Assembly: GCA_050250855.1 (NCBI GenBank)
Contig: JBFWNW010000003.1
Coordinates: 128,001 to 192,000 of the forward strand
DNA: 64,000 nt
Source of the DNA: Candidatus Babeliales bacterium
GTDB taxonomy: Bacteria; Babelota; Babeliae; Babelales; JACPOV01
Direction of reading: 5' to 3'
In this document: positions 7,981 to 51,882 of the stretch, one piece after another
How positions within the stretch are numbered: the first letter of the stretch is position 1
Layout: the number at the start of each line of letters is the position of its first letter
The notes under the pieces: generated by a model
Database searches by the model: none
The model's input: only the letters and a program-made list of their open reading frames with translations
What the model was told of the DNA's origin: nothing
Translations under genes and position numbers: made by a program

Positions 7981-8853
7981 TTATTTATAAACAACTCTTT
8001 TCTGCATAATAAGCACAAAAAGCTCTAACGCCGCAATAGTTCTTTTGCAAACATTTATATCTATATCATAATCACGAGTATCTTTTTTAGGTTTTTGCTT
8101 TAAATCTTTATACTTATTCTTGTACTTTTTTTGCTCTTTTATTTCTTTTTCTACCAACTCTAAGGCGCTTAATCCTCTTTGATTTTTCTGGTCAGGAGAT
8201 ATACCTAGTTCATGTAATCTGTGTGCACGAAATACAAATCTTTCTGTTGGACAATAATTTACACTAATAGATATCAAACTATGCCAAAGGTTATCCCCAT
8301 TAGCCAAGCACTTAGGTTTTAAACCCTTTTCAAGATAATAGCCAAAAAGTGCATTGTCTGCAGTATGATAACATATTGATTCATGAAGAAGATCCATGCC
8401 GCTAGTAACTCCAGTGCCTTCATTAATAACATCCAATTTTGCGCCCTTTGAGACTAAAAGTTCTGCCATTTCTGGTGTTTTTGCAAAAAATATAGGCTTA
8501 CTTGAATGAATTCTTTTGATTTCATAATTTGGATTTGCATTTTTTTCCAATAAAAATCTTGCAAATTCAATATCATTATTTTCTATGGCATGAGTTAAGG
8601 GAGTATGATGTCCTGAAAAAAAATCTTCTACATCTACTGTTGTAAGATTATGAGTTTCAATTATTTCTTGTATAGTTCTTTTAGCTTCTTCTCTTGCTCT
8701 TAAATTTTTTGAAGATAAATTAGACATATTTTCTCGTATTTGCTCTTCAGGAGATAATTTTTGCATCCCAAAAGTATGGTTAGGAAAATCCATGCTATAA
8801 AGAGAACAATTTAATACCATGAATCCTGCAAAAAACATTATATTCTTTTTCAT
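7981..8853 (-). CDS. Secreted ankyrin-repeat protein
   Basis: Signal peptide; TPLTHAIENNDIEFARFLLEKNANPN. Confidence 0.8.
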   Translation of the reverse strand: MKKNIMFFAGFMVLNCSLYSMDFPNHTFGMQKLSPEEQIRENMSNLSSKNLRAREEAKRTIQEIIETHNLTTVDVEDFFSGHHTPLTHAIENNDIEFARFLLEKNANPNYEIKRIHSSKPIFFAKTPEMAELLVSKGAKLDVINEGTGVTSGMDLLHESICYHTADNALFGYYLEKGLKPKCLANGDNLWHSLISISVNYCPTERFVFRAHRLHELGISPDQKNQRGLSALELVEKEIKEQKKYKNKYKDLKQKPKKDTRDYDIDINVCKRTIAALELFVLIMQKRVVYK

Positions 8854-8984
8854 ATAAAATCCCTTGTACCATTAAAAAAACCTAATACTTACAATATTTC
8901 TTTAAGCCTATTGCATGCAATAGTATACAAAAATTTCCCTCGCAGCAAGCATTTAAGTAATATCAGACAAAATATTTAAAAAAT

Positions 8985-9022
8985 TTATTGATTTTCGATA
9001 AAAATTTATTATAATTCAATAT
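8985..9022 (+). promoter_or_regulatory. Promoter region with two imperfect palindromes, a possible operator for the downstream HTH regulator
   Basis: TTATTGATTTTCGATAA and TATTATAATTCAATA overlap TTGATT...TATAAT. Confidence 0.45.
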
Positions 9023-9055
9023 GCATGTTTAAATTTTTTACCTAAAAGGAACATC

Positions 9056-9589
9056 ATGAAAAAACTTATTTCATGGACCTATAATTTCACGCTCTTTATT
9101 TTCATTCCTCTTGCTCTTCTCTATCCCCTTTTATTATTTACTCATCACACGCAAATTTTTATTCATTACACGCAAATGTTTGATATTCCTCAACCAGTCT
9201 ATGATATAAGCTCTCTTCCACTTTTAGGAAAACTATTATTTTTTTGTCTTGAAAGCATTTCCGCTATCTGTTTACTTTTTGTATTGTGGTATTTCTTGCA
9301 AATATTAAAAAACAGCATGAAAACAGGATATTTCTTTTCCTTCCAAACAATTACCATGCTTAAAAAAATTAATAGAGTTGGCATTCTTTGGACAGTCTAT
9401 AGTCTTTTTTTTGATACTTTTGCAAGCGTTCTTATTTCTTTCTTTAAACCTGCTGGATTCCGCTACATATCTTTTTCCATCAATGCATACGATATTATAC
9501 ATCTTTTTGGCATCTTGCTTATTATGGTACTTATACATATTATACAAGAAGGCTGTTCTATAAAATCTGAACAGGATCTGGTGGTATAA
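9056..9589 (+). CDS. DUF2975-family membrane protein
   Basis: 4 TM helices, FFS..TI..LK.I, C-terminal G..IKSEQDLVV; coupled to an HTH gene. Confidence 0.85.
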   Translation: MKKLISWTYNFTLFIFIPLALLYPLLLFTHHTQIFIHYTQMFDIPQPVYDISSLPLLGKLLFFCLESISAICLLFVLWYFLQILKNSMKTGYFFSFQTITMLKKINRVGILWTVYSLFFDTFASVLISFFKPAGFRYISFSINAYDIIHLFGILLIMVLIHIIQEGCSIKSEQDLVV

Positions 9590-9795
9590 TGGAAATTAGA
9601 GTAAAGCTTGATGAAATGATGGCAAAGCGTAAAATACGCTTGCATGAATTAGCAGAAAAAGTTAACATTACCGAAGCTAATCTTTCCATTTTAAAAAATG
9701 AAAAGGCTAAAGCTATTCGTTTCTCTACCTTAATAGCATTGTGCCAGGCACTTAACTGTCAACCTGGTGATTTATTCGAATTTACCAACAAATAA
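9589..9795 (+). CDS. Cro/C1-type HTH regulator (YozG-like)
   Basis: ANLSILKNEKAKAIRFSTLIALCQALNCQPGDLF. Confidence 0.92.
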   Translation: MEIRVKLDEMMAKRKIRLHELAEKVNITEANLSILKNEKAKAIRFSTLIALCQALNCQPGDLFEFTNK

Positions 9796-9824
9796 CCCTC
9801 ATAATAAACGAATAATTTATATTC

Positions 9825-25529: not shown

Positions 25530-25796
25530 ATGAAAAAATCAATCATTCTTTCTTTTATTGGACTAACAATAGCATCTTCTTGGTCATATCTTTCTGCCTC
25601 AGACAAAACCCACACCGTCTATGAAAGTAATTCAACTACTGTTTATGGAAGCGCCAATAAAAGTGAAGTTTCTGTTGGTTTAGTGGTGACGACAAACAAA
25701 GATGTTTTAGGAAAAGCAGCAAAAAAAGCCAAAAAACTCAAAAAGATTAAAAAAGTTAAAAAACTTGGCAAGCATTTAAAGAAAATGAAATTTTAA
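25530..25796 (+). CDS. Small secreted protein with Lys-rich amphipathic C-terminus
   Basis: Signal peptide; KAAKKAKKLKKIKKVKKLGKHLKKMKF. Confidence 0.7.
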   Translation: MKKSIILSFIGLTIASSWSYLSASDKTHTVYESNSTTVYGSANKSEVSVGLVVTTNKDVLGKAAKKAKKLKKIKKVKKLGKHLKKMKF

Positions 25797-25897: not shown

Positions 25898-27241
25898 TTA
25901 GAGCCTCTGGATAAGTGAATTTAGCAATAATGCTAAAAAAACATTCTCTAAATTAGGAGTGATTTGTGCAACCTTGACTGGCTCACTAATTTCTCCTAAA
26001 GTTTTTTGTGTTTCTTGTAAAAGTTGCATAAAAGTATCGTCACTTTCATAGCTTTGGTTGGCAAAATAGTTAATAATATCTTGTAATCTATTTAATGGTA
26101 ACGGCAGCATAGATTTCATCACAGTATAAAACATATCATAATTTAAACTGTTTTCATGCAATAATGAATTTTCATCATACTCATTTGCCAAGCAAAGTAA
26201 TGCTTTGATCTTTTCATCAACATATTTAAGTGGATTTTTTATAATATCTTCAATAGCTGCTTGCAATTTTTTGTTAACAACTTCTTGATTAAAATAAAAC
26301 TGGCTACATGCATTGATATCAGAACCATGTACAAGAAGCAGTGCTATACAATCAATATTATTACTCACAAGAGCACTTACAAGCGGTGTGTAACCTAAAA
26401 TATCTTTTGCATCTATTTCAACTTTAGCATCAATAAGAAGTTTTAAACACTCTACGTGCCCATGCAGAGCAGCCACATGAAGTGGTGTTTCTACATTGTT
26501 ATCTGGCTTATGAATATCAGCACCATGTTTCATAAAAATCTTTGCGCAATCTTTATGACCTCCGCAAATAGCCGCACTAAAAGGTGTTTGACCAGTTGAT
26601 CCATTTATACTATCTATTTCAGCTTTAGAAGCAATGAGCAATTTAACGCAAGCTAAGTTTCCTTTTGCAGCTGCTTTATAAAGAGGAGTTTCTCTTTTTT
26701 CATCTTTGCTATTTACATTCTCATTATTATTCACCAGAAGCTCTAAACAATGGTCTTTCCCTTTTTCAGCAAACAAATGAAGAAGTTTGTTTTTATCTTT
26801 CTTATCAAGCTTTGCTCCATTTAGAAAAAGATATTCTGCACAATCAGCATCTTTTTGAAGAAAGGCTATATCAAGTGGTGTATTTTTAGACAGATCTTTT
26901 GCATCAACCTTAGCACCATTTTTAATAAGCAATTCAGCGCAATCTTTATATCCCTTTTGAACAGCACAATGAAGGGGACTGTTTCCCAAATAATTTGACT
27001 TATTCACATCAGCACCCTGTTGAATGCTTGTTTCAATTGCTTGCAAAATAATTTGATTATGGGTTAAACCCTTTTTCATACCACCAATAAGCCTAGAAAT
27101 ATCATTCTTATTGTGTGCAATAAAAGAAAAAAGATCATATATCTCTGGTCTCTTGAACGGATTATTTTCAACATCTTCTGCCGCGTACAGGGCCCCCGCA
27201 AGACTACAAGTTAGGGTAAAGATGGTAAGTAGTTTTTTCAT
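25898..27241 (-). CDS. Secreted ankyrin-repeat protein (about 7 repeats)
   Basis: GNSPLHCAV, ETPLYKAA, ETPLHVAA, GYTPLVSA; signal peptide. Confidence 0.92.
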   Translation of the reverse strand: MKKLLTIFTLTCSLAGALYAAEDVENNPFKRPEIYDLFSFIAHNKNDISRLIGGMKKGLTHNQIILQAIETSIQQGADVNKSNYLGNSPLHCAVQKGYKDCAELLIKNGAKVDAKDLSKNTPLDIAFLQKDADCAEYLFLNGAKLDKKDKNKLLHLFAEKGKDHCLELLVNNNENVNSKDEKRETPLYKAAAKGNLACVKLLIASKAEIDSINGSTGQTPFSAAICGGHKDCAKIFMKHGADIHKPDNNVETPLHVAALHGHVECLKLLIDAKVEIDAKDILGYTPLVSALVSNNIDCIALLLVHGSDINACSQFYFNQEVVNKKLQAAIEDIIKNPLKYVDEKIKALLCLANEYDENSLLHENSLNYDMFYTVMKSMLPLPLNRLQDIINYFANQSYESDDTFMQLLQETQKTLGEISEPVKVAQITPNLENVFLALLLNSLIQRL

Positions 27242-27446: not shown

Positions 27447-28013
27447 ATGTCCACCTCAATTATTAAAAAATCATACCTTATCATTCTTCTTTTATGCTCT
27501 ATGCAAGGCATCAAAAGCTCTGAAAATACAGAAACTCCAGTAGTTGACTATCAACAAGCATCCAAAACTCTTACCTGCTTATCACAAAATCCCTTAACCT
27601 TTTTAAGCAATCTTTCAAATACATTAGATCTTAAAGCTATCTATCTATCCCCTCAAGAAAAAGAAGATCTCATAGAAAAGTTAAAAGGTTTAAAACAAGC
27701 TTTTTGCAATCGTTCAAAGCATTCAGTTTTGGTATTACCTCTTCTTGCAACAGTATGCTTGGGCCTTAAAACTCTTTTTGACTATGCTGCAGTAAACTAT
27801 AGTAAAGAGGTCTACAATTCATCATTTTTCTTGTCTGGCATTCATACAGAAAATGTTAATATTTTCATGACCAGTTTATGTCTTTTTATTGGCTGTTTGG
27901 GCTGTTCAATCTTGCTTGAAATGGAACATTCTGAATCTGTTTCTTCATTATTCAGCAAAGAAGAAAAACTTGAACAAAAAATTGATAAACTTATTACAAA
28001 GTTACAACAATAA
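27447..28013 (+). CDS. Hypothetical exported or membrane protein
   Basis: Signal peptide, two hydrophobic segments, coiled-coil-like tail. Confidence 0.6.
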   Translation: MSTSIIKKSYLIILLLCSMQGIKSSENTETPVVDYQQASKTLTCLSQNPLTFLSNLSNTLDLKAIYLSPQEKEDLIEKLKGLKQAFCNRSKHSVLVLPLLATVCLGLKTLFDYAAVNYSKEVYNSSFFLSGIHTENVNIFMTSLCLFIGCLGCSILLEMEHSESVSSLFSKEEKLEQKIDKLITKLQQ

Positions 28014-34728: not shown

Positions 34729-36063
34729 TCAACTAACTACTAAAGGAACCTTATAGGCAGGCGACCAGGCAGGATGGTTACAACGATCCTGTGCTGAGGT
34801 CAAAAAGGTTCGCTCTTGCGTAACAAGATTCAGTACCGCTATACGGCTAGCTGAACCTGTCTGCACTGTAAAAGCAAGATAGTTGCCACAAGGGGACCAG
34901 GTACATTCTTCTTTATGGTTTTTATCAAAGGTTACCTGTTCACTTTTTTTGGTTTTCATATCATAGACAAAAATTTGCATAGCCCCATCAACAAACGCAC
35001 TATACGCTATTTTGCCACTTTTAGCACAATAGGCTGGGCTCACACAATGGTCGCCATCGGTCAATACTTCTGTTTGCTCGGTAAATGCATGGTAGTAGCA
35101 CACCTGTGGCCCTTTTTTGTAAGCATCAGAACAAAAAATAATATCCCCATTTTCACACAACGTTGGACAAACATTATTACCATTATTAGCAGTAATTGGC
35201 CGCACTAAAGATTCATCATCTTTTTGTTCACATACATATAACTGACTTTTTCCATTCAATGAACGACAATAAATAACGCGCTTACTATCTGCAGAAAATG
35301 AAGGCAACATATTAAACCCGTCAAAATTAGAAACGAGTTTTCGTTGTTTGTGCAAATCAACCGACATTAAACGAATGTTAGAACGCGTTGCCTCCGAATA
35401 TAATAATAATGGTGAAATGCTGTCTTTGTTCCAGCGCAGGGCAAATGCTCTACCCTTTTCTACTAAGGGCGTGCAAAATTCATTATAGAGTGATTGTGCA
35501 GGATCTGCATATGGCGGTGCCAGGCAAATAGTGCGTGCTCGTTTTTTTTCACCCTGCACTTCTTTACAAAATGCAATACGAGAGGTAAAAAAGCCCTCCT
35601 GTCCTGTCAAAAGCGGCCACAATTGCCCTGCTAATAATTCTGCTCTGCAGCGCACCGGCATATCTTGTTTTGCAAAACGCTTACCGCGCACCATTGAAGC
35701 TACTTTGGTATCATACATGCGCCACTCTAAAAAATTATCCGCTGATTCAGTTATAAATACCGAAAGAGGAAAACCATCTACGGCCATCTGTTTTACTTGT
35801 TTTGTAGTAGGAACTTTTTCAAACGATTTTACCGTAACTTTAAAACCACTGGTGCGTTGGTTCGTGCGATCAAGCATAATTTTTATATACCGCGCAAACT
35901 CATCAAGTTCTGCGGTATGTTTACCAACGACACCAAGCAATAGAGGCATTTTTTGTTGCTGTTCTTGCTTGCTTTGAATGGTCATGGTTGAGGCTTGCGG
36001 CTTTGCATACAATGCTTGCTGCATTACAAAAATCATTACTAATGACAAAAGCTTTTTTTTCAT
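34729..36063 (-). CDS. tolB: TolB-like periplasmic beta-propeller
   Basis: GFFTSRIAF, PD40-like repeats (PSFSADS, TWSPCG, PAWSP); operon context. Confidence 0.82.
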   Translation of the reverse strand: MKKKLLSLVMIFVMQQALYAKPQASTMTIQSKQEQQQKMPLLLGVVGKHTAELDEFARYIKIMLDRTNQRTSGFKVTVKSFEKVPTTKQVKQMAVDGFPLSVFITESADNFLEWRMYDTKVASMVRGKRFAKQDMPVRCRAELLAGQLWPLLTGQEGFFTSRIAFCKEVQGEKKRARTICLAPPYADPAQSLYNEFCTPLVEKGRAFALRWNKDSISPLLLYSEATRSNIRLMSVDLHKQRKLVSNFDGFNMLPSFSADSKRVIYCRSLNGKSQLYVCEQKDDESLVRPITANNGNNVCPTLCENGDIIFCSDAYKKGPQVCYYHAFTEQTEVLTDGDHCVSPAYCAKSGKIAYSAFVDGAMQIFVYDMKTKKSEQVTFDKNHKEECTWSPCGNYLAFTVQTGSASRIAVLNLVTQERTFLTSAQDRCNHPAWSPAYKVPLVVS

Positions 36064-38091: not shown

Positions 38092-38200
38092 CGCTCTTCC
38101 TTTATATAGTGGACAAAAAAATTTTTAAGTACTTTTTACACTTTATAGTAGTGTAGCGTAGAGTACAAAACTATGACAAGTATTTTAATACTGAATATGA

Positions 38201-39881: not shown

Positions 39882-39904
39882 GACATTCCTATCTTTTTAC
39901 AAGG

Positions 39905-40714: not shown

Positions 40715-40723
40715 GGTAGTCTA

Positions 40724-41440
40724 TCAATGAAACAACAGTGGAACAATAGTATTATGAGCCATATGAGAAATAACCGGTACTAAAGAAAGATTTGTGGTGC
40801 TTCTCAATGTACGGTGACGCAGGAAATTACGCACCCCGCTACCAATAGATAAAGGTAATGGATAACATGAATGGACACTAGCAAAAAGAATTGGCATTAA
40901 ATAGTTACTCAATCTAGGCATTATCGTAGATGGAGAATAGGTATACAAAAGTTCTTCAAATATTGGAGCAACTAGTATCGCACCTACCCAAGGTACTTTT
41001 TCTTGTGGAAAGCTTTTAGGGGTAAAAAGCAAATAATAAACTTTTGAAATTATCACGTTTTGAATAATTCCATAAAGAGTTACTCTTAATCCAGCATAGA
41101 GATTTTTTTTAAATGAAAATTGATCAACATTATCATGAAAATGGAAAACTCCTTTTTCATCTTTATAAAAACATGGGCTACCATTATTAAACTCACTAAG
41201 ACCTAAATCTGATTTAATAGTTTGAATAATAGTACGAAAAAAGCCATCCTTCTTTGGTGCTTCATGTTTTTCAGGGCTGCAAGAAGGATTCTGCTTTTCA
41301 GCATGCTCTAAGCCTTGCTTGGCAAGAGCAGAGAGATTATTTTTATAGTTCTGCCATGAAAGATCTTGCTCTGAACTGGCCGGCTGCCAACCCAAAAACA
41401 AAACTATACATACTGCTATTTTTATTACATTCTTATTCAT
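40724..41440 (-). CDS. Exported protein with a CPBP/Abi-like intramembrane protease domain
   Basis: APIFEELLY, LFASVH, SHMAHN. Confidence 0.6.
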   Translation of the reverse strand: MNKNVIKIAVCIVLFLGWQPASSEQDLSWQNYKNNLSALAKQGLEHAEKQNPSCSPEKHEAPKKDGFFRTIIQTIKSDLGLSEFNNGSPCFYKDEKGVFHFHDNVDQFSFKKNLYAGLRVTLYGIIQNVIISKVYYLLFTPKSFPQEKVPWVGAILVAPIFEELLYTYSPSTIMPRLSNYLMPILFASVHSCYPLPLSIGSGVRNFLRHRTLRSTTNLSLVPVISHMAHNTIVPLLFH

Positions 41441-41634
41441 AAAAACCTATAATATTTTAAAAGCTTTAATAATAACGACCCAGAGCACCAATTAGTCTTA
41501 ACTAATATGCCAGAAAACCATCTTTATGTACAGATACAAAACAGCCAAAATACCCATATCTCTATTGACTTTTTATGGATTTATGGCAAATTGGAAATAT
41601 ATAGCATCATGAACCCAAAATAGAGAAAACACTT

Positions 41635-42552
41635 ATGACCCTTAAAAAGATAACTTTAGCCGCATTACTTGCCGCATACACCTGCCTGCCTCTACAGGCA
41701 ATGGAAATCGATCCGTTTAAAAAGACTGGGATCCCTACTATGGATCAGCACAGCACCCTTGTTAAATTATATGCTGCTGGGATACAAAAATTTGTTAATA
41801 GTTCAGTTGGAAAAACAGTTATGCCGTGGTATAGACAAAAATCTATTGATCTCTTAAAAAATAATCTTTTTTATGACCCCTCATCATATTTCGACGCAAG
41901 CCCAGAAATTCAACAGTTGGGTAAAGAAGCTCAAGAAAAATTAGAAATACCACAAGAACAGCAAGTTCCTATAAAACTTATGGCTATGAAAGTAAATATA
42001 GCAGCAGGATATACTCTCCCTACAGGGATATTTATCGGGCCTCCTAGCAAGAGAGCTCGGGATAAATTAATCTTACTACATGAATCAGCGCATAAAAAAT
42101 ATTATGATTGCGAAATACATTCTATAGAAGAATTATTAAACCTTATTACAAGCTCTTCTCTAGCTTATTTTTGCACAAAGACTCTAAAAAATTTTAAATT
42201 GACAAATAATTCTCTTTCTAAAAAATTTTTAGGCATAACTTCATTTCTAGGATCCTTGAAACTATTAGGAATTGGTATAGATAATAGTAGTAAATTTCGA
42301 GAATCTCGTGCCGACTTTACAGCGTTCCATGCCCTTGGTTGCCATAAGTGTGTAAGTGAATATTCTGAATTTAGGCCCACTCAAGATTCTGATAGGGGTA
42401 AAGAACTGAGAAGAGAAGGTTACTTTCCAAAAAACGATCTGGAAATCATTTCGGAAAAATTTCGTAAAGAAAATAGAGTTTGTGATTATCATGTTCAGCA
42501 GCAACAAAATATTTTCCAAAAAGCATGGCGAAATTTAAGGAACATCTTATGA
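41635..42552 (+). CDS. Secreted HExxH (M48-like) protein, paralog 1 (type A)
   Basis: LHESAH, ESRAD, CHKC, CDYH. Confidence 0.78.
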   Translation: MTLKKITLAALLAAYTCLPLQAMEIDPFKKTGIPTMDQHSTLVKLYAAGIQKFVNSSVGKTVMPWYRQKSIDLLKNNLFYDPSSYFDASPEIQQLGKEAQEKLEIPQEQQVPIKLMAMKVNIAAGYTLPTGIFIGPPSKRARDKLILLHESAHKKYYDCEIHSIEELLNLITSSSLAYFCTKTLKNFKLTNNSLSKKFLGITSFLGSLKLLGIGIDNSSKFRESRADFTAFHALGCHKCVSEYSEFRPTQDSDRGKELRREGYFPKNDLEIISEKFRKENRVCDYHVQQQQNIFQKAWRNLRNIL

Positions 42553-43490
42553 CCCTTAAAAAGATAACTTTAGCTGCATTACTTGCCGCATACAGTTGCG
42601 GCCTGCCTTTACAGGCGATGGAAATCAATCCGTTTAAAAAGACGGGCATTCCTACCATGGACCAGCACGGCACCCTTGTTAAAGTATGGGAAACAGGAAT
42701 TCAAAAAGTTATTCAGCATAATAGCTTTATACGCGAAACTTTTTTGCCCGGAATACGTAAAAAGCATAATGGGAACTGGGACCCTGCATGGCTCTCGGAT
42801 GCAAATCCTGAAATACAACAACTAGGCAAAGAGGCGCAAGAAAAATTAGAAATACCTCTGGAACAGCAAGTTCCCATAAAGCTTATGTATGGCAATCGTG
42901 CAGCTGGATACACTACCTCTATGGGAATATTTGTCCAAGATTTTAATAACAGGTCTATAAATAGATTTGTCTTATTTCATGAGGCTGCGCATAGAAAATA
43001 TTGGGATGACAAACATGAGCTGCATTTTGCATCAACAGATACAGATAGTTTATTAGGAGCAACAGGAAATTTTTTCTTAGCAAGTTCATTAACCTACCTA
43101 TTAATCTCAAACGAGTTTAAAAGTATTGCAAAATATTTTGCACTTCCTCAAACGAAATTTTCAGCTATTGCAAAAATAAGCTCTTCAGTAGGATACTTAC
43201 TAGCATTTAAAGCTTGGAGAGATTATATAAATAATGAATATCCTAGTAAAAGAGATGCCTTTGTAGAATCTCGTGCCGATTATACAGCATTCCATGCTCT
43301 TGATTGTCATAAATGTATCAGTGAGAGTTCTGAATTAAGTGCTAGCCAAGATTCTGATAGAGGTAAAAAACATCGCGAACGAGGTTATTTTCTAAAAGAG
43401 GATATGGAAATCATTGCGGAAAAATTCCGTAAGGAAAATAAAATTTGTGATTATCATGCTCAGCAAAAAAATATTACACAGAATTTGTAA
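42549..43490 (+). CDS. Secreted HExxH (M48-like) protein, paralog 2 (type B)
   Basis: FHEAAH, ESRAD, CHKC, CDYH; start set at 42549 by paralogy. Confidence 0.78.
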   Translation: MTLKKITLAALLAAYSCGLPLQAMEINPFKKTGIPTMDQHGTLVKVWETGIQKVIQHNSFIRETFLPGIRKKHNGNWDPAWLSDANPEIQQLGKEAQEKLEIPLEQQVPIKLMYGNRAAGYTTSMGIFVQDFNNRSINRFVLFHEAAHRKYWDDKHELHFASTDTDSLLGATGNFFLASSLTYLLISNEFKSIAKYFALPQTKFSAIAKISSSVGYLLAFKAWRDYINNEYPSKRDAFVESRADYTAFHALDCHKCISESSELSASQDSDRGKKHRERGYFLKEDMEIIAEKFRKENKICDYHAQQKNITQNL

Positions 43491-43510
43491 ATAAAATAGA
43501 GAAAACACTT

Positions 43511-44389
43511 ATGAACCTTAAAAAAATAACCCTAACCGCATTACTTGCAGCATACAGTTGCGGCCTGCCTTTACAGGCAATGGAAATTGATCCCTTTAAA
43601 AAGACTGGCATCCCGACCATGGATCAGCACAGCACCCTTGTTAAATTATATGCAACTGGCATACAAAAATTTATTAATAGTTCAATTGGAAAAACAGTTA
43701 TGCCGTGGTATAGAAACATAAATGCTGCTCTATACAATATCTTTGATAATTCAGCGTCATATAAGGATGCAAGTCCAGAGGTTCAACAACTGGGAAAAGA
43801 AGCACAAGAGAAACTTGGCATACCCCCAGAACAACAAGTCCCTATAAAACTTAGTGGCAGCTTTTTATCAAATTATAATTCTTCTGCAGGAATATTTATC
43901 GGAGATAACTCCAATAACCCAACAAATAGATGGATTCTATTTCATGAAGCGGCACACAGAAAATATTGGGATCCAGATATAGGATTACCAGAAGTTATTC
44001 TCAGCTTTCCTTTAACTTATTTCATTGGTACTAGCATTCCAAAAATCTTACAGGGATTAGGGCTTATAAATGAATGTAGTGAAGGAATTATCGCCTATTC
44101 AATTCTTGCATCATTTGGAATGTTTTCCTATTTTTTAACAAAACATCAAGCCTTTCGTGAATCTCGTGCTGAGTATACAACTTTACATGCTCTTGATTGC
44201 TATGTATGCCCGACAGAAAGCTCTATATTACAATCTAGCCAAGATTCTGAGAGAGGCAAAGAAGAAAGAAAACTAGGTTATTTTTGTACGGAAGATGTAC
44301 AAAAAGTAACAGATGAGTTGCGCAAAAAAAATAGATTATGTGCTTATCATGCTCAACAGCAACAAAATATTATCCAAAAAGCATGGTAA
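43511..44389 (+). CDS. Secreted HExxH (M48-like) protein, paralog 3 (type A)
   Basis: FHEAAH, ESRAE, CYVC, CAYH. Confidence 0.78.
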   Translation: MNLKKITLTALLAAYSCGLPLQAMEIDPFKKTGIPTMDQHSTLVKLYATGIQKFINSSIGKTVMPWYRNINAALYNIFDNSASYKDASPEVQQLGKEAQEKLGIPPEQQVPIKLSGSFLSNYNSSAGIFIGDNSNNPTNRWILFHEAAHRKYWDPDIGLPEVILSFPLTYFIGTSIPKILQGLGLINECSEGIIAYSILASFGMFSYFLTKHQAFRESRAEYTTLHALDCYVCPTESSILQSSQDSERGKEERKLGYFCTEDVQKVTDELRKKNRLCAYHAQQQQNIIQKAW

Positions 44390-44406
44390 AACTTGAGGAA
44401 CCTCTT

Positions 44407-45378
44407 ATGAACCTTAAAAAGATAACTTTAGCAGCATTACTTGCCGCATACAGCTGCGGCCTACCTCTACAGGCGATGGAAATCAATCCCTTTAAAAAGA
44501 CGGGCATTCCTACCATGGACCAGCACGGCACCCTTGTTAAAGTATGGGAAACAGGGATTCAAAAAGTTATTCAACATAATAGTTTTGTACGCGAAACGCT
44601 TCTGCCCAGAATACGTAAAGAAAATATCAATCACTTAAAGGGTAATGAATTTGAAGACCCTGCATTGCACTTTGATGCAAGTCCTGAAATGCAACAACTA
44701 GGCAAAGAGGCGCAAGAAAAACTAGGCATAACACTAGAACAACAAGTTCCTATAAAAATTATGAAAAATGATGACCCTTTTGATGTTCTGGCCAAGCATA
44801 ACTCGGCAGGAATATTTATAAAAAATTATAGTACAAAAGATGATTTGAATCAGGAGCTTAAAAAATCTTTAGATAAGCATGTATTATTTCATGAGTCAGC
44901 ACACAGAAAATATTGGGATTCAGAGCTAGGAACGGAATTTTCACTGTTTCTAGCAGGATACCTTCCCATAGCTCTTTCTTCTTTTTATTTAGGATATTCA
45001 AAACGAGTTAAAAATACCATTGAACAATACATACCTGATCAAAATCCAGGAGATATACAATTTTTGGGAACATGTTCTTATCTTATTTCAATAGGATTGG
45101 CGTGGGCTTACTATGCATTTATTAAATATCCTCAACAAAAAAGTGCTTTCATTGAATCTCGTGCCGATTATACCGCTTTACATGCCCTTGATTGCCACAT
45201 TTGCGTAATAAATTGTTCTCAATTGTGGATGAGCCAAGATTCTGATGGGGGCAAAGAAAGAAAAAAATTAGGTTATTTTCCAAAAGAAGATATCGAAATC
45301 ATTGCAGAAAAACTCTATAAGAAAAATAGAATCTGTGATTATCATGCTCAGCAAAAAAATATTACACAAAATTTATAA
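44407..45378 (+). CDS. Secreted HExxH (M48-like) protein, paralog 4 (type B)
   Basis: FHESAH, ESRAD, CHIC, CDYH; start set at 44407 by paralogy. Confidence 0.78.
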   Translation: MNLKKITLAALLAAYSCGLPLQAMEINPFKKTGIPTMDQHGTLVKVWETGIQKVIQHNSFVRETLLPRIRKENINHLKGNEFEDPALHFDASPEMQQLGKEAQEKLGITLEQQVPIKIMKNDDPFDVLAKHNSAGIFIKNYSTKDDLNQELKKSLDKHVLFHESAHRKYWDSELGTEFSLFLAGYLPIALSSFYLGYSKRVKNTIEQYIPDQNPGDIQFLGTCSYLISIGLAWAYYAFIKYPQQKSAFIESRADYTALHALDCHICVINCSQLWMSQDSDGGKERKKLGYFPKEDIEIIAEKLYKKNRICDYHAQQKNITQNL

Positions 45379-45478
45379 GATACCTAAAACTTTTTGCTTA
45401 TTGTTTTATTTTTCATCTTTTGCATATTTTTGCTAGACTAAAATTTATATACACTAAAAATTTTATAGGTAAAAAAGT

Positions 45479-47236
45479 ATGAAGAAATCTCTTATATCCC
45501 TTAGTATCCTCTTTTTCTCTCTTACTTGTCTGCATGCAGCAACCGTTGATCTTAAACTTAATAAAATCGATGAAAAAACTTATAAAGCGGAAGTCAGCTT
45601 TGCACTCCAAGATGGCGAGCTCCTGTATCAACACGTTACTGATTTTTCTGTAGATAGTCCTTATGTCGCTCTAGGACCGGTCAACGCACACAAAAGCCCG
45701 CTTAATAAATATGACCCTATCAGTAAAGAAACGCGTTTGATTTTTGAGCATGACGTTACTTATAGCATGGATCTTGCCAATAAAAAAGAAGGCTCCAATC
45801 CTGCACGGTTTTACGTTACGTATCAAACAAACCAACAAACAGTTCCTGATTATAAAATTTTTGAACTCCCATTTTCTGTAAAAGCAGCAGAAGAAACAAC
45901 TTTAACTAAACCTGAAAAAGCTGCTGAACAAAAAACTGTTCATACGGCAAAGCAACAATCATGGCTTAATATTCATGCATGGTCTTCATTACTTTCTTCC
46001 GTTATTGAACAAAGTAAATCATTGCCAATTCGTTTAGCATTAGTATTCTTGCTTGGCTTATTGCTCAGCTTAACGCCCTGCATTTATCCTATGATTCCGA
46101 TCACCGTTGGCATTTTACAAACACAACAAAAAAAATCAGTATTTCATAATTTTTTAAATGCTTTTGCTTACACTATAGGAATTTCTACTACGTTTGCTTG
46201 CCTTGGTCTCTTGGCAAGTTTTAGTGGCCCCATTTACGGCAAACTGCTCATGAGCCCTATTTCTGTAGGGATATTAGTTATAATGCTTGGGTATTTAGGA
46301 TTATCTATGTTTGGACTTTATGATATTCAAGTGCCACAATTTTTGCGTACTCAAAAAACAATGCCGACGGGTGCTTCTTATATTTCATCATTTTTATTTG
46401 GTGCTGCAAGCGGTACCATTGCTTCACCGTGCGTATCACCAGGACTTATTTTATTGCTCAGTATTGTTGCTGGCCTTGGCAGTGTTTTTCTTGGGTTTCT
46501 CTTGCTCTTTGCTTTTGGCGTAGGATTAAGTATGCCGTTATTGCTTATTGGCACTTTTTCAACATCACTGAATATACTACCCCGCGCAGGACTGTGGATG
46601 GTGGAAGTAAAAAAGATTTTTGGCATCATGCTCTTTGCCGTCTGCTTTTATTATTTGCATAATATTATGGCATTAACAACGCTCATGTATTTGATAAGTA
46701 TATTTTTAATGGCCCTTGGTACTTATTTTCTGGTAACAAGTCATAAAACAACTTCTTACGGCATTAAGCGCTATCATACGCTTATGGGATTTGTTTTGAT
46801 ATGCGCGTCACTTCTTTGCCTTGGTTATACCCTGCAGCATGCTTATTTAGTAGTGCCAGAAGAAAAACATGCTACTAATTTTTGGAACACCAATTATCAA
46901 GAAGCACGTCAAAAAGCAATCAATGAACACAAGTTATTATTCTTAGATTTTTGGGCAGAATATTGCAGCTTATGCAAAGCAATTAATAAAAAATTAATCT
47001 CTCAAGAAGGTATTAAAAAAGCTCTTCAAAAAACAGTACCAGTCAATATTAATGGTACTGATGAACAGCAAGAACCCTACAAAACGTTGCATACAAAGTT
47101 TTCTATTAAAGGCTTTCCGACCTATTTACTCGTTGATCCAACTAATGAGCTTGTGCTCAAAGAATGGCACAGTGAGTTGTATCACATGGATGAAGAAACT
47201 TTTGTTCAGGAATTAGAGCTGTATACTAAACGATAA
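45479..47236 (+). CDS. dsbD: Thiol:disulfide interchange protein DsbD-like
   Basis: LTPCIYPMIPI, ASPCVSP, LPRAG.WM, thioredoxin motif WAEYCSLC. Confidence 0.9.
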   Translation: MKKSLISLSILFFSLTCLHAATVDLKLNKIDEKTYKAEVSFALQDGELLYQHVTDFSVDSPYVALGPVNAHKSPLNKYDPISKETRLIFEHDVTYSMDLANKKEGSNPARFYVTYQTNQQTVPDYKIFELPFSVKAAEETTLTKPEKAAEQKTVHTAKQQSWLNIHAWSSLLSSVIEQSKSLPIRLALVFLLGLLLSLTPCIYPMIPITVGILQTQQKKSVFHNFLNAFAYTIGISTTFACLGLLASFSGPIYGKLLMSPISVGILVIMLGYLGLSMFGLYDIQVPQFLRTQKTMPTGASYISSFLFGAASGTIASPCVSPGLILLLSIVAGLGSVFLGFLLLFAFGVGLSMPLLLIGTFSTSLNILPRAGLWMVEVKKIFGIMLFAVCFYYLHNIMALTTLMYLISIFLMALGTYFLVTSHKTTSYGIKRYHTLMGFVLICASLLCLGYTLQHAYLVVPEEKHATNFWNTNYQEARQKAINEHKLLFLDFWAEYCSLCKAINKKLISQEGIKKALQKTVPVNINGTDEQQEPYKTLHTKFSIKGFPTYLLVDPTNELVLKEWHSELYHMDEETFVQELELYTKR

Positions 47237-47300
47237 AATTTAAAATTATACTATTTACTTTTAGTAAATTTGCACATTTAAAATACAGAACTTAGTTTAT

Positions 47301-47377
47301 CCCGTTCGTGGTGAGGAGCAAACTTGTTTAGTTTGCGTTCCTGTCCTGAGCTCGACGAAGGGTCGAACCATAACGAC
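47301..47377 (+). repeat. REP-like hairpin repeat, copy D, with a nested CCTGAGCTCGACGAAGG module
   Basis: CCCGTTCGTGGTGAG-GAGCAAACTTGTTTAGTTTGCGTT-[CCTGTCCTGAGCTCGACGAAGGG]-TCGAACCAT. Confidence 0.78.
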
Positions 47378-47420
47378 AAATTTCCTAAAAAAGATAAAAC
47401 CATAAATCTTACTTTAATTT

Positions 47421-47474
47421 TGAGTTCGAATGGTTCGAGACGTTTTTCTTCGAAAAACCCTCACCACGAACGGA
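47421..47474 (-). repeat. REP-like hairpin repeat, copy E
   Basis: Reverse complement: TCCGTTCGTGGTGAG-GGTTTTTCGAAGAAAAACGTC-TCGAACCATTCGAAC; near-identical to copy B. Confidence 0.8.
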
Positions 47475-47559
47475 ATATAGGATTTTAAGTATATACCTCT
47501 TAAGCCAATTTTGACTTAAAAATTAGCCTTTTGCAACGCAAATTGTATCGAAGGGTAGT

Positions 47560-47898
47560 TTACGCACCGTGATACGAGGTATCTTTTCTCTCTTTCTCTT
47601 CTAGTTCTTTGCGTTTGGTAATAATTTGACGGTACATAGTATCAATAACGCGGTCAAGTACGTCATAAAAATCTGGCCCCTCGTAATCTGAGTTTAAATA
47701 ATAACGAGGTGTTTTAACTAAAATATGCACTTTGTGATGCGCATGAATTTTTGAAGGGTCAAGAAAAATTTCAAGATAAATAGGTTCACGTTCATGCTCA
47801 AGAATTTTTTCAATTTTTTTAATCTGTTGGTTAATATAATCTTCCATTACTTGCGAGTGATCCATACCACGAAAGGTAATTTTTTTTTCCATAATCAT
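47560..47898 (-). CDS. hpf: Ribosome hibernation factor HPF/RaiA (short form)
   Basis: ITFRGMD.S..MEDYI..KI.K, DFY..LD...D.M.RQ. Confidence 0.82.
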   Translation of the reverse strand: MIMEKKITFRGMDHSQVMEDYINQQIKKIEKILEHEREPIYLEIFLDPSKIHAHHKVHILVKTPRYYLNSDYEGPDFYDVLDRVIDTMYRQIITKRKELEEKERKDTSYHGA

Positions 47899-48033
47899 AG
47901 TTCCTTTTTTTATATTTTTAACACCATAACTTTAGCAAAATCTCTGCTCCCCTGCAATAAACATTAAAGCCATTTGCATAATAACCAATCTTTTATGTAT
48001 GCTTGGCATAAATAATTAAAAAAAGGAGCTCGT

Positions 48034-48612
48034 ATGAAAAAAATAATATCTTCCTTACTACTTCTAGCTACAGCAAATATATATGCTATCATGTTTGATG
48101 CTGAAACTGAAAAAAAAATGAAAAAAGGCAACGAACTTTTTTATTTTGAGTGCGTTGCATGCGAACAGCTCCTTGATGAAACATTTCCTCTCACGACTAT
48201 TGCTAAAGCAACAAAAGATAAATTTGATGCATTAAGACCAGGAACTATTCTCTATGCAGCGAGTTTTGAACAATCTCGTACCATAGCAACAGAACTTCTT
48301 GATATCATAGAAAATCAAACAGATTATCAAGAAGCCTTGCAGCAAGCACAAGCATTTGATACCAGTGAAGCATGGAGCATTGTGCACGCTATTGTCTATA
48401 AAAAAGCACGAGAACTCATTCAAGAAAAAAGCGACCTTGTTTTTCCATCACTCTTAAAAGATTACACTGATATGAAGTTAAAGCTTCGTGAATTTGCACA
48501 AGCAAATAAAACCATTGATCCTAAAAAGAATGGGCCTTATTTGGAAGCGCTTTCCTTTGTTATCTATCATATTGAATATATAAAAAAGGAATCACAAACG
48601 GTTGAAGATTAA
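48034..48612 (+). CDS. Hypothetical secreted helical protein
   Basis: AAGGAG RBS and signal peptide. Confidence 0.65.
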   Translation: MKKIISSLLLLATANIYAIMFDAETEKKMKKGNELFYFECVACEQLLDETFPLTTIAKATKDKFDALRPGTILYAASFEQSRTIATELLDIIENQTDYQEALQQAQAFDTSEAWSIVHAIVYKKARELIQEKSDLVFPSLLKDYTDMKLKLREFAQANKTIDPKKNGPYLEALSFVIYHIEYIKKESQTVED

Positions 48613-49934
48613 CGTTTAACCATCTTGCGTAGCACAAATACAACAGGCACACCAAGCAGATCAAATTGATCACGCATAACGTTTTCAAAAAATGCAAGCT
48701 GGCTTGGTCCAAACCACGTTGGATGATTTACTTTGACCAGCAACGTCAACGGTGCTGCCGAGATTTGTTTAACGCTTCGCACATGTAATAATTCACCAGA
48801 ATGATAAAGAGGCGTTCTATGCAATGCATCTTTAAAAAGCATCGTCAGTGTATGATCAGAAATTTTTTGGTTATAACGCTCCCAGACCTGTTTAATTAAA
48901 GGTAAAATTTTGCCAACATTTTTACCACTTTTGCATGAAATAAAAAGATGAGGAATCTTTTTGAACAATTGACGATAAAACTCAAATTGCTCTTCAAATT
49001 TTTCACGTATTTCTTCATCAACTAAATCTGTTTTATTAATCAGAAGAATAAGCGCTTTACCTTGTTCAAATGCATAAAAAGCTAATTTTAATTCTTGGTC
49101 ACTTAATTGTCCTTCAGAGCCATCAACCAACAATAAAACAATATCTGCATTATCAATAGCGGTGAATGATGTTTTGACCATCAATTTTTCTAGAGGCTCT
49201 TCCACTTTGCGCTTACGTCTAATTCCTGGCGTATCAGTCAAGGTAAATGTTTCTTGATAAAATTTTATCGGTTCAGTAATTGCTTCGCGCGTGGTACCTG
49301 GAATTTCGCTCACTAAAACACGTTCTTGCTCTAGCATAATATTCATGAGTGAAGATTTTCCAACGTTTGGCTTACCAATAAATGTTACACGCAAGGTTGG
49401 TTCTTCTTGTTTGCTTTGAGACTTTTCAGGAAGTACCGCAAGCAATGCATCAAGTACCTCTGCTATACCGGTACCATGCTGCGCAGAAATACCAAGAACA
49501 TCAGAAAAACCTAATTGAAAAAAATCATACGTATTTGCTTGTGCCTGTTGATTATCAATTTTATTAACGGCAATAATGACCGGTTTTCCTGTTTTGTGCA
49601 GCACTTTTGCAAGTTCACGATCTTCTACCGTAAGACCAGCGCTTCCATCAACAACAAAAAGTAATACATCCCCCTGATCTAATAAATTCAAACCAAGTAG
49701 ACGCACCTGCTCTGCCAAAGGATCTTGTGATTTTCTTAATGAAATACCACCACTATCAAGCAAGGTAAAGCAACGATCTTGCCAACAGATCACATCTTTT
49801 ACAAAATCTCGCGTTACCCCTTCATAATTAAGGGCAAGGCTTTTTACATTTTCTGACAAACGATTAAAAAAAGTAGATTTGCCAACGTTGGTACGACCAA
49901 CAATAATAACTTGGGGCAATTTATGCATGCTCAT
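48609..49934 (-). CDS. der: Ribosome biogenesis GTPase Der (EngA)
   Basis: Two G domains: GRTNVGKS/NKID and GKPNVGKS/DTPG/NKTD. Confidence 0.96.
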   Translation of the reverse strand: MSMHKLPQVIIVGRTNVGKSTFFNRLSENVKSLALNYEGVTRDFVKDVICWQDRCFTLLDSGGISLRKSQDPLAEQVRLLGLNLLDQGDVLLFVVDGSAGLTVEDRELAKVLHKTGKPVIIAVNKIDNQQAQANTYDFFQLGFSDVLGISAQHGTGIAEVLDALLAVLPEKSQSKQEEPTLRVTFIGKPNVGKSSLMNIMLEQERVLVSEIPGTTREAITEPIKFYQETFTLTDTPGIRRKRKVEEPLEKLMVKTSFTAIDNADIVLLLVDGSEGQLSDQELKLAFYAFEQGKALILLINKTDLVDEEIREKFEEQFEFYRQLFKKIPHLFISCKSGKNVGKILPLIKQVWERYNQKISDHTLTMLFKDALHRTPLYHSGELLHVRSVKQISAAPLTLLVKVNHPTWFGPSQLAFFENVMRDQFDLLGVPVVFVLRKMVKR

Positions 49935-51612
49935 CCTTTGGAACTTCCGTCACGGTGCCGGGAAAAATTTTTAATACTAAATTTGTTTTTTTCCATCTAT
50001 CAGTATCTGATACATCAATTGCTTTTTCTACTACCTTTTTTTGTGGAGATGCGTATAGAGGGCGCTTTTGAGAGCTGAACTTTTCTGGCTGTTGCGCTTG
50101 CTGCTTTGGTCTTGGTGCAACAGGTGGCCTTACTGTAGATAGTTCACGCGGTACAGGTGTTGTCTGCTTTGCTGGATCTGCAAATAGAGATTTGACGGTT
50201 GTTGTTGCGCCAAAAAGCTGCGCAATAATAGGCTGCCAATCTTTTGCCGTATCTTTAAGAAGATCTTCAAAAAATGAAAAGTTTTCAGGAAATATGAGGG
50301 TAATAATAGTATCTTCATGCGCAGCAAATCGCCCTTGCTTGAATACCGAAAAAACAAGTGGATCATTCAACAAGGAAACTTTTTCTAAAAAAGAATGCCA
50401 CAGCGGATTCCCTGCTGTTTGATTTTCTATCGGTGCTGCTTTTTGCGGTAACACCGTTGGCTTGACTGCATCTGAAGTATGTACCGAAGCTTTTTCACGT
50501 GATTGCGAACCATGATTACCACCTTTAACTTTTTGCGCTATGCATACTAAAACATATTCAAGCACAGCATGTTGGGCTCGCGTTTTTGCAAACAACAACT
50601 CATGATCGTAAAAAAGCTGTAAACATTCGGTGAAAAACTGAGTAGAATGGCGCTCTATCAATAGTGCTAATTCTTCAGAAAAAGAAACGGTGATACCATA
50701 TCCTGACCATAACGCCTTACGCATTAATTCTACACTTGCATCCCATGCAATTGATGCAGAAAAAGAATGGAATGAAATTTCCTGCATATAAGAAAGTGCT
50801 TGTGCAATGTTTCCTTGTAAAATAAAGGAAAACAGATGCATTAAACGCTCTTGATCCAAATGACCAAGTACACCCAATACAGCTTGCGCGCTCACCGTAC
50901 GTGCCGTAAAACGCACTTGCTCTAACAAGTTAAGGGCATCACGCACAGAGCCTTCTGTTTGTTTGACAATCAGCTCAAGCGCTTCTTTCTCATAGGAAAT
51001 TTCTTCTTTTGTGCAAACAAATTCTAAATGCTTTACTAATGCGGCAGAAGGTAATGCTTTGAAAAAAACTTGAAAGCAACGCGATGTTACGGTTTCTATA
51101 ATTTTTTGAGGATCGGTTGTTGCTAAAATAAAAAATACTGAAGCTGGTGGTTCTTCTAAAATCTTTAAAAAGGCATTAAAAGCTGCCTTACTGAGCATAT
51201 GGGCTTCATCAATCAGATAAATTTTTTTGCGCCCAAGCAGTGGCATAAGAGAAGCGGCATCAATAATGCTGCGTACATTATCAACGCCCGTATGAGAAGC
51301 GGCATCAATTTCTATAAAATCTGGATGGTTACCGCCTTTCATGGCACTACAAGAAGCACACGAAAGGCAAGGGATTGCTTCTTTAGGGTTTTTCTGAAAT
51401 ACCGGCAAATTTTGGCAATTAACCGCAGCAGCAAATATACGTGCTGCCGTTGTTTTTCCACAGCCTCGCTGGCCAGAAAAAAGATACACGGGGAAGTAAT
51501 GGTCCAGATATAAACTGTTTTTTAGCATACGTACTGGCAGCTCTTGCCCAACGATTTCATTAAAGGTACGGGAGCGCCATTTACGTGCTAAGTTTAACTT
51601 TATTTCACTCAT
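49921..51612 (-). CDS. dnaX: DNA polymerase III subunit gamma/tau
   Basis: LARKWRS..F.EIVGQ, GQRGCGKTT, IEIDAAS, DEAHML, LEEPP. Confidence 0.96.
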   Translation of the reverse strand: MSEIKLNLARKWRSRTFNEIVGQELPVRMLKNSLYLDHYFPVYLFSGQRGCGKTTAARIFAAAVNCQNLPVFQKNPKEAIPCLSCASCSAMKGGNHPDFIEIDAASHTGVDNVRSIIDAASLMPLLGRKKIYLIDEAHMLSKAAFNAFLKILEEPPASVFFILATTDPQKIIETVTSRCFQVFFKALPSAALVKHLEFVCTKEEISYEKEALELIVKQTEGSVRDALNLLEQVRFTARTVSAQAVLGVLGHLDQERLMHLFSFILQGNIAQALSYMQEISFHSFSASIAWDASVELMRKALWSGYGITVSFSEELALLIERHSTQFFTECLQLFYDHELLFAKTRAQHAVLEYVLVCIAQKVKGGNHGSQSREKASVHTSDAVKPTVLPQKAAPIENQTAGNPLWHSFLEKVSLLNDPLVFSVFKQGRFAAHEDTIITLIFPENFSFFEDLLKDTAKDWQPIIAQLFGATTTVKSLFADPAKQTTPVPRELSTVRPPVAPRPKQQAQQPEKFSSQKRPLYASPQKKVVEKAIDVSDTDRWKKTNLVLKIFPGTVTEVPKDEHA

Positions 51613-51669
51613 AGTAGTTTAAGAATAGAGCAAAAAGAGAAATTTGCCAAAGTATACTTAAAAATCCTG

Positions 51670-51882
51670 CTAATCTTGCTTTTCTTTTTGACTTAGATCA
51701 GTAGAACTCACGTGACCGTACTGTTGATTTTGTACGTCATTGACCGGTGGGGTTATTAATCCTTTTTCTTGGAAATAGTGCCACAAAAATTCCAGGCAAT
51801 TTGAACAACCCTCTGCTTCATCCATACCTTGTACTGCAAAAACCATGCTACATGCTACTACTAATAAGAACTTCTTCATCAA
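51670..51882 (-). CDS. Small secreted hypothetical protein
   Basis: GAGG RBS; signal peptide VQG|MDE. Confidence 0.6.
   Translation of the reverse strand: MMKKFLLVVACSMVFAVQGMDEAEGCSNCLEFLWHYFQEKGLITPPVNDVQNQQYGHVSSTDLSQKEKQD

Follow-up and report, generated by a model that had tools for sequence, protein, structure and literature searches.

An undescribed, lineage-specific rule appears to operate at signal peptidase I sites in a Candidatus Babeliales bacterium (assembly GCA_050250855.1), in which many proteins predicted to be exported begin, after removal of the leader, with methionine (Met) followed by aspartate or glutamate. The rule was followed up from a stretch of 64,000 nucleotides of this genome (contig JBFWNW010000003.1, positions 128,001 to 192,000; here called the window, G000:C3:128001-192000), where junctions of this kind are found on an exported ankyrin protein, an exported ubiquitin-like protein, four tandem paralogs and several orphan proteins. 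Read from sequence, the descriptive part of the explanation, namely that such a rule exists in G000 (the genome holding the window) and in some of its relatives, can be put forward with high confidence. The whole of the favoured statement, according to which the exposed N-terminus is itself under selection and would serve a role on the host side, is given a probability of about 0.4.

Met enrichment ahead of the first acidic residue

The assembly of G000 comprises 1,218,285 bases on 11 contigs, with a G+C content of approximately 0.35-0.41 depending on the contig. It was compared with 40 further genomes of the phylum, all of one order and 0.8-1.8 Mb in size; the family and genus labels of these relatives (f1, g17 etc.) are those assigned by the tool employed. 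Genes were called by a codon-usage score, which gave 1156 genes in G000 (91% coding). Leaders were recognised heuristically as an n-region with Lys/Arg followed by 11-32 uncharged residues containing a hydrophobic 8-mer, and Sec-type leaders were identified in this way on 503 of the 1156 genes (43.5%). Signal peptides have been described on 44% of the genes and 78% of the ankyrin genes of one published member of the phylum (PMC6561590), and on 79 of 126 ankyrin proteins of a second (PMC4378268). The leaders were aligned on the first charged residue beyond the hydrophobic core, an alignment that is independent of cut-site prediction; cleavage sites are predicted throughout, from the heuristic plus the -3/-1 rule. 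The Met class consists of those leaders with Met directly before the first Asp/Glu. An unsupervised cleavage-site matrix was discarded and its counts were not used, as it slid into the hydrophobic core, plainly so in the relative G049.

The first charged residue was Asp/Glu in 327 G000 leaders, and the residue preceding it was Met in 75 of them, Ala in 52, Ser in 47 and Gln in 41. Background occurrence of Met at positions -6 to -2 was 50 in 1635, that is 6-15 per position (binomial p = 1.8e-42), while Met before a first Lys/Arg was seen in 3 of 176 leaders (Fisher odds ratio 17). The enrichment of Met after the cut, for which the original prediction had proposed a test, is thereby borne out genome-wide. 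The Met class makes up about 15% of all leaders (75/503) and 23% of those in which an acid is the first charged residue (acid-first leaders). Single-linkage clustering of the mature parts grouped the 503 genes into 373 families, 54 of which hold a Met-Asp/Glu member, with a family-weighted count of 48.9/244; since the signal persists when counted by family, it is not explained by paralog expansion. Applied to 79 loci drawn from many phyla other than this one (87 leaders on 819 genes in 774,470 bases), the same scripts returned Met before the first acid in 0 of 52 cases, and the same pipeline returned 3 of 112 in G049, which belongs to the same order and has a G+C content of 0.33. As neither set shows the signal, it is not created by AT-richness or by the pipeline.

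Predicted cut site, start codon and extended motif

The Met-class junctions lie where signal peptidase I is predicted to cut, as had originally been proposed: position -1, just ahead of the Met, is occupied by A/G/S/C in 68 of 75 leaders, and the residue at -3 is small or aliphatic (A/V/S/T/I/L/C/G) in 64 of 75. The median leader length of the class is 20. With their positive n-region, hydrophobic core, small residues at -1/-3 and length of about 20 residues, these leaders resemble those of the classical Sec/signal peptidase I type, from which they differ in having Met at +1 (23% of acid-first leaders, compared with 0/52 at the control loci). Genes for the corresponding machinery were identified in G000, with one match for SecY and a single copy of LepB (one Peptidase_S26 match). 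A test for a lipobox showed Met, not Cys, at +1, with Cys at -1 in only four of the 75.

The original prediction had itself raised the possibility that the inner Met is the true start codon. If so, or if it were an alternative start, the upstream leader would be an artefact or would mark a second isoform; in AT-rich DNA an upstream frame may appear hydrophobic by coincidence, and a Shine-Dalgarno-like motif precedes only some 40-50% of the real starts in G000. Such a word (AGGA, GGAG or GAGG, 4-18 bases upstream) precedes the upstream start in 39 of the 75 Met-class genes (51% for all 503 leader genes) and the inner ATG in 5 of 75, which equals the rate for control in-frame inner ATGs (4.6% of 5876). 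Because these words precede the upstream start and not the inner ATG, translation does not start at the inner Met. The small residue at -1, the conservation of leaders at the protein level with synonymous changes, and the lack of such a Met in G049, in the relative G037 and at the loci of other phyla under the same pipeline also argue against an inner start, which is regarded as very improbable indeed.

Many leader genes of G000 possess an in-frame ATG-GAR 3-5 codons before the MKK start (for example C3:41805, C1:385722 and C1:388753), giving upstream reads such as MEKPMK, MEFIMKK, METIMKK and MEITMLRK. This upstream ATG-GAR may simply be the GGA(G) of the ribosome-binding site, translated in frame because an AT stands ahead of it, and it will mislead gene finders on the position of starts.

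The codons that follow the Met are GAA (39), GAG (14), GAT (17) and GAC (5), in proportions near those of the genome, while the preceding residue is encoded by GCN, GGN, AGY, TGY and other codons. Since the flanking codons are varied and genome-like, the signal acts at the level of the protein rather than the DNA. After [AGSC]-Met (n = 127), Glu occurs 50 times, Asp 21 times and Gln 14 times, where 7.0, 4.7 and 8.4 would be expected from inner Met-X dipeptides; Lys (1 against 7.3 expected) and Leu (4 against 15.9) are depleted, as are Ile and Val. The three residues past the acid are strikingly polar (6-14% hydrophobic), and Lys/Arg reach 22-28% slightly further on. In counts pooled from the four genomes with the rule, proline lies within three residues past the acid in 44 of 121 Met-class leaders and in 66 of 432 other acid-first leaders (odds ratio 3.2, p = 1.2e-6). 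The motif can be written as [LSVI]-x-[AGS]↓M-[DE]-x(0-2)-P (the arrow marks the predicted cut, here and below), with a polar and basic stretch after it. When all acid-first leaders are taken together, the alignment columns resemble -3, -2, -1, +1 and +2; by the -3/-1 rule (n = 327) the acid is placed at +2 in 154, at +1 in 43, at either in 20 and at neither in 110. It is nothing unusual for bacterial leaders to have an acid at +2 after Ala, Ser or Gln at +1. Of the set of starts originally proposed, it is consequently the Met starts that stand out as unusual, and the Ala-Glu and Ser-Glu starts do not.

Probable selection on the mature N-terminus

Conservation among paralogs indicates that the Met is likely kept by selection on the exposed mature N-terminus and is not a leftover. 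At 40-55% identity, Met was shared in 44 of 58 directional paralog comparisons, compared with 2 of 15 for Ser and 0 of 6 for Ala at the same place, and at 30-40% identity the corresponding values were 46/119, 17/84 and 8/40; these pair counts are non-independent and a few families dominate them. In a five-member family, SYA↓Met-Glu is kept beside an indel of 19 residues. An 11-member family contains one clade with Met at +1 and a varying residue at +2 (E, Q, E, D, K, Q), and another in which a cut site of this kind is followed by Ala or Gly. Three paralogs read AQA↓SE, AQA↓SE and AQA↓MD.

The four tandem paralogs of the window (41635..45378, plus strand; starts at 41635, 42549, 43511 and 44407) provide a local example. 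Each leader ends in LPLQA and is followed by Met-Glu-Ile-Asp/Asn-Pro (LQA↓MEI), with the Met at 41701, 42618, 43580 and 44476. Overall identity among them is just 55-57% by alignment, and their best-kept part is the 22 N-terminal residues of the mature protein. Over the first 46 codons, each pair of paralogs has 5-13 synonymous and 1-5 non-synonymous codon differences; as synonymous differences exceed non-synonymous ones, the leader and the first 22 mature residues appear to be under purifying selection and not merely homogenised by gene conversion.

Proteins that carry Met-Asp/Glu

A Pfam scan covered 175 of the 179 leader genes of C3 and C4:1-210000 (the four spanning more than one locus were dropped), and proteins were sorted by hand on their best family. 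The Met class (n = 27) contained eight ankyrin proteins, seventeen without a family, one C11 peptidase and one ubiquitin-like protein. The other leader proteins (n = 148) were divided into ten ankyrin proteins, 81 to which no family was assigned, 40 assigned to some other family, and 17 that were membrane proteins or had mis-called starts. A family other than ankyrin was assigned to 2 of 27 Met-class proteins, compared with 57 of 148 others (p = 0.0015). Proteins without the Met include TolB, DsbD, BamA, PBP1, ZnuA, S41 and M23 peptidases, rotamase and thioredoxin. The contrast first drawn between ankyrin or orphan proteins and housekeeping proteins thus holds, the motif being present on fast-evolving ankyrin, ubiquitin-like and orphan proteins and sparing the housekeeping proteins of the envelope.

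Genome-wide, 122 of the 127 Ank_2 matches listed were above the cut-off and fell in 46 genes, 18 without a leader and 28 with one. Eleven of the latter have Met-Asp/Glu and four more have [SG]-Met-Gln; relative to all leaders (75/503), Met-Asp/Glu is more frequent on ankyrin genes (odds ratio 4.2, p = 0.001), with the reservation that paralogs are not independent. By the -3/-1 rule, the acid is at +2 in thirteen ankyrin leaders and at +1 in one, compared with four and three for enzyme-type proteins, numbers which are small. Met-class proteins are short (median 217 residues) and their relatives in other genomes are rare. The classes could not be told apart by the cysteine content and parity, the charge or the transmembrane-like segments of their mature parts.

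Distribution among Babeliales

The Met rule is patchy in the order Babeliales, even inside one family. It is strong in four of the genomes sampled and weak or absent in eight other relatives; in the counts that follow (Met over acid-first leaders), the small samples are compatible with a low rate, and families f6 and f13 were each sampled from few genomes. Outside G000 (f1, 75/327), the rule is seen in G001, of the same genus (8/45 in 199 kb sampled), in G005, of the same family (19/82), and in G021, of genus g17 in f13 (19/99). The second representative of f13, G037 of genus g26, gave 0/24. Counts in the remaining genomes were 3/112 for G049 (f6), 0/18 for G020 (f12), 0/19 for G011 (f3), 0/5 for G012 (f4), 0/10 for G010 (f2), 2/36 for G013 (f5) and 3/33 for G048 (f11).

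In G049 the commonest residue before the first acid is Gln (22/112), and many paralogous leaders end in ...MYAAQE/QD. The best matches of the G000 Met-class ankyrins in this genome, and likewise many of these Gln-before-acid leaders, have the form ...YA-A-Q-D/E, in which Ala is at +1 by the -3/-1 rule.

Junctions in the window

All the junctions reported for the window in the original prediction are present in its sequence. The exported ankyrin protein (290 aa; 7981..8853, minus strand; Pfam Ank) has a leader of residues 1-20 and the junction LYS↓Met21-Asp22 (LYS↓MDFP), its Met codon being at 8791-8793. An orphan of 181 aa without a Pfam family (10478..11023, plus strand) has a leader of residues 1-23 followed by VDA↓Met24-Gln-Arg-Lys (Met codon 10547-10549); the c-region of this leader is atypical in that it contains an Asp. 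A clostripain-like (C11) peptidase of 414 aa (11901..13145, minus strand) has a leader and then Met30-Glu31 after YLY. As no small residue is found at -1, the cut may fall earlier; the best match of this peptidase in G005 has Met-Asp at the aligned position. A second leader-bearing clostripain-like (C11) peptidase is encoded in the window at 59177-60409.

The exported ubiquitin-like protein (148 aa; 14010..14456, minus strand) matches the ubiquitin family PF00240 (E value 4.6e-6) and has a leader of residues 1-19 followed by LYS↓Met20-Glu-Pro-Lys-Lys (Met codon 14397-14399). A leader-bearing ubiquitin C-terminal hydrolase (UCH) was identified elsewhere in the genome, at G000:C4:56295-57569. 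Mimicry of the ubiquitin system is known for the phylum, and these two proteins fit it.

A further orphan of 70 aa (51670..51882, minus strand) has VQG↓Met20-Asp-Glu (VQG↓MDEA; Met codon 51823-51825). For an orphan of 188 aa (27447..28013, plus strand) the open reading frame originally reported is confirmed and the junction is not: LCS↓Met19-Gln-Gly (LCS↓MQG; Met codon 27501-27503) fits the -3/-1 rule better than IKS↓SENT, and the mature protein therefore probably starts with Met-Gln too. The sister classes of start are represented by an exported ankyrin protein of 447 aa (25898..27241, minus strand), which has Ala at +1 and acid at +2 in LYA↓Ala-Glu-Asp (LYA↓AEDV), and by an orphan of 88 aa (25530..25796, plus strand) with LSA↓Ser-Asp-Lys (LSA↓SDKT). 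Housekeeping proteins of the window, both without the Met, are a TolB-like protein (PD40; 34729..36063, minus strand) with LYA↓Lys-Pro-Gln and DsbD (45479..47236, plus strand) with LHA↓Ala-Thr-Val.

The LQA↓MEI paralogs are possibly M48/HtpX-like metalloproteases, an assignment offered as a lead. An HExxH motif is invariant in all four (His149, Glu150 and His153 in the first copy) and a conserved ESRAD follows about 70 residues on; the nearest entry in the ESM Atlas is M48/HtpX-like, with a feature score of 0.91 and a TM score of 0.53 on the Atlas's own model. Pfam gave nothing usable for the family, a PDB profile search gave one match (E value 0.26), an AlphaFold2 model was unusable (mean pLDDT 38.4), and the relatives found in a large protein collection were its own paralogs and one fragment (four hits). 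Directly upstream of the four genes, on the opposite strand, a leader-bearing membrane protein (40724-41440) has a weak match to the Rce1-like/CPBP family (E value 0.0042, below the cut-off).

Comparison with known systems

The Met rule belongs neither to the Q-rule described in Bacteroidetes nor to the export system of Plasmodium. The Q-rule is, as here, a lineage-specific preference for one residue immediately following the signal peptidase I cut, recognised from proteome statistics, absent in related groups and thought to work via the chemistry of the new N-terminus (PMC5837995). It concerns Gln at +1, which is cyclised to pyroglutamate by a known enzyme and is found on most substrates (PMC5837995). 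The rule described here differs in involving Met with an obligatory acid on about 15% of leaders, in sparing housekeeping proteins, in being patchy in one order and in having no known modifying enzyme. Furthermore, among the 327 acid-first leaders of G000 the residue ahead of the acid is Gln in 41 and Met in 75, making the Q-rule an analogue of which G000 is not a member. A plant-type glutaminyl cyclase (PF05096) was found in none of five genomes in a search that did not include the animal-type (M28-like) cyclase.

The machinery of the Plasmodium export element (PEXEL) is eukaryotic, comprising the endoplasmic reticulum, plasmepsin V, which cuts after the Leu of an RxLxE/Q/D motif so that RxL precedes the cut, and the PTEX translocon. 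PEXEL is similar to the present case in that it belongs to a parasite, includes a Sec-type step and a precise cut exposing an acid or amide at position 2, and has exported and resident proteins that differ in their mature N-termini (PMC10653839). According to the same source, a mature N-terminus of x-Glu/Gln/Asp alone decides export of Plasmodium effectors into the host cell (PMC10653839). Glu, Asp and Gln are likewise found at position 2 here (50, 21 and 14 of 127). Unlike PEXEL, the Babeliales junctions have a plain -3/-1 signal peptidase site, no RxL and Met at position 1, so that the resemblance is functional only.

With regard to the classes of eukaryotic N-termini, the starts observed here are similar in comprising Met-Glu, Met-Asp, some Met-Gln, Ala-Glu and Ser-Glu, with Met-hydrophobic starts depleted. 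They are unlike them in that Met-Asn shows no enrichment, the acid is often preceded by Gln, and the ends would be made by a bacterial peptidase and not at a eukaryotic ribosome. No description of the Met rule was found in full-text literature searches, and the wording 'cleavage site' was absent from the main Dependentiae genome papers, the supplements of these genome papers aside in both cases.

Possible explanations of the rule

The original interpretation, a two-step effector export system in which the motif after the cut is a sorting signal or mimics host N-termini, is supported in part. In the favoured explanation, a Met-class protein would be made from its upstream start and exported by Sec, and the signal peptidase I cut would leave a mature protein beginning with Met-Asp/Glu or, less often, with Gln at +2. 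The identity of this exposed N-terminus would be what is selected, after the protein has left the bacterium. NatB acts on Met-Asp/Glu/Asn/Gln and NatA on Ala/Ser/Thr/Gly and similar starts, and Pro near an N-terminus hinders aminopeptidases. The Met-acidic start, like the Ala/Ser starts of its sister classes, would thus resemble the native N-termini of eukaryotic cytosolic proteins and avoid a destabilising N-degron residue, while a nearby Pro would hinder aminopeptidases. Such a host-side role is favoured because Met-acidic, Ala and Ser starts are of the native eukaryotic type, Met-hydrophobic starts are depleted, ankyrin leaders avoid an acid at +1, and Pro lies near the end; on these sequence features it is a tentative proposal. 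A more specific version, drawn by analogy and more doubtful, is that Met-Asp/Glu(-x-Pro) might be a host-directed address or identity tag, a bacterial counterpart of the Plasmodium export signal, that would have arisen more than once in Babeliales and that would pick which of about 500 Sec-exported proteins enter the host, or let them pass there as native for the N-terminal acetylation or N-degron machinery.

Several observations weigh against a host-side role. Seventeen of the 28 leader-bearing ankyrin genes lack Met-Asp/Glu, and the paralog comparisons are subject to the non-independence given above. Met-Asn, which is of NatB type, is not enriched after [AGSC]-Met (3 against 5.3 expected). 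Gln, a residue that is destabilising in eukaryotes unless cyclised, precedes the acid in 41 of 327 leaders. To our knowledge, N-degron and Nat systems are universal in eukaryotes; as eight sampled relatives lack the rule despite this, Met would at best be one acceptable solution among several. The main substrates of NatB are nascent chains on the ribosome, which makes the acetylation of an imported protein doubtful.

Three other explanations accept both the upstream start and the cut. Met-Asp/Glu(-x-Pro) might be read by a further machine (of the secretin type, for vesicle loading or another translocon) as a second sorting step out of the periplasm. The extended motif with its Pro and polar stretch, a cargo limited to effector-like proteins, the 22 best-kept mature residues of the four window paralogs and the two secretins and two T2SSE-type ATPases encoded by G000 are consistent with this, as is the Plasmodium precedent of a mature N-terminus that decides export (PMC10653839). 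The two secretin genes lie about 4.7 kb apart at G000:C2:122575-129486, and at least two Secretin matches, mostly as a close pair, were found in all 41 of the sampled genomes (the 40 others and G000); the conserved tandem pair may be a trait of the phylum. As this pair, the obvious candidate for an outer-membrane translocator and the one candidate machine examined, is present in genomes with and without the Met rule (41/41), the analysis identified no machine whose presence follows the rule. Moreover, ankyrin paralogs vary between Met, Ser and Ala at +1, and if all of these exit the cell, Met alone cannot be the signal; no receptor candidate is known either. A second sorting step is judged unlikely.

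Lower still is the probability that the Met is a footprint of gene birth, that is, the old start of a once-cytosolic gene that gained an upstream leader, with an acid at +2 subsequently favoured since positive charge near the cut hampers export. In favour of this, Met-class genes are young, lineage-specific and poor in orthologs, all leader classes often have an acid at +2 (154/327 by the -3/-1 rule), and leaderless ankyrin paralogs start about as far ahead of the first repeat as the +1 Met lies in their leader-bearing counterparts; a co-linear leaderless paralog was found for 2 of the 75, too few to judge. Leaderless genes (n = 653), however, start with Met-Lys (101), Met-Asn (89) or Met-Ile (72) and with Met-Glu in just 37 cases and Met-Asp in 12, and there is hardly any excess of Met before other residues. 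Gene birth would also leave the Pro enrichment past the acid unexplained, and it does not agree with the better retention of Met than of Ala or Ser in diverged paralogs, with the alternation of Met and Ala/Ser in one family after an unchanged AQA or AHx cut site, or with the lack of a Shine-Dalgarno remnant ahead of the Met. An equally poor prospect is a role in processing or envelope stability, in which Met plus acid would be a preferred substrate of signal peptidase or Sec, or a shield against exopeptidases, like the Gln rule of Bacteroidetes and with no role in the host. Lineage-specific +1 rules have been described (PMC5837995), LepB is single in G000, young genes may follow a current optimum faster than old ones, and a Pro close to the N-terminus fits protection from aminopeptidases. 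Against this, housekeeping envelope proteins do not obey the rule, just 15% or so of leaders follow it (75/503), G021 and G037 differ in it within one family, and a modifying enzyme specific for Met is neither known nor did one emerge from the analysis. A membrane-anchored GNAT acetyltransferase was considered as the modifier and rejected, since it occurs in 5/5 genomes whatever their Met status; the G000 gene for a GNAT with an N-terminal anchor or leader is located at G000:C4:10511-11068.

Significance for Dependentiae

The published members of the phylum are protist parasites, and only Sec and type II systems are named in the papers on Dependentiae considered here (PMC6561590, PMC4378268), type II being the sole secretion system detected in the second of these organisms (PMC4378268). 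About 40% of the Dependentiae proteome is routed through Sec, and how envelope proteins and host-directed effectors then part is a key question. For annotation, the rule represents a hazard, as a conserved in-frame ATG 20 codons into a gene invites wrong start calls. The Met rule is a robust pattern that is easily testable by mutating two residues. It is possibly the second case, after the Gln rule of Bacteroidetes, of lineage-specific information held in the +1 residue, and a simple mark in the sequence by which the secretome can be sorted into classes would allow the prediction of effectors in this uncultured phylum.

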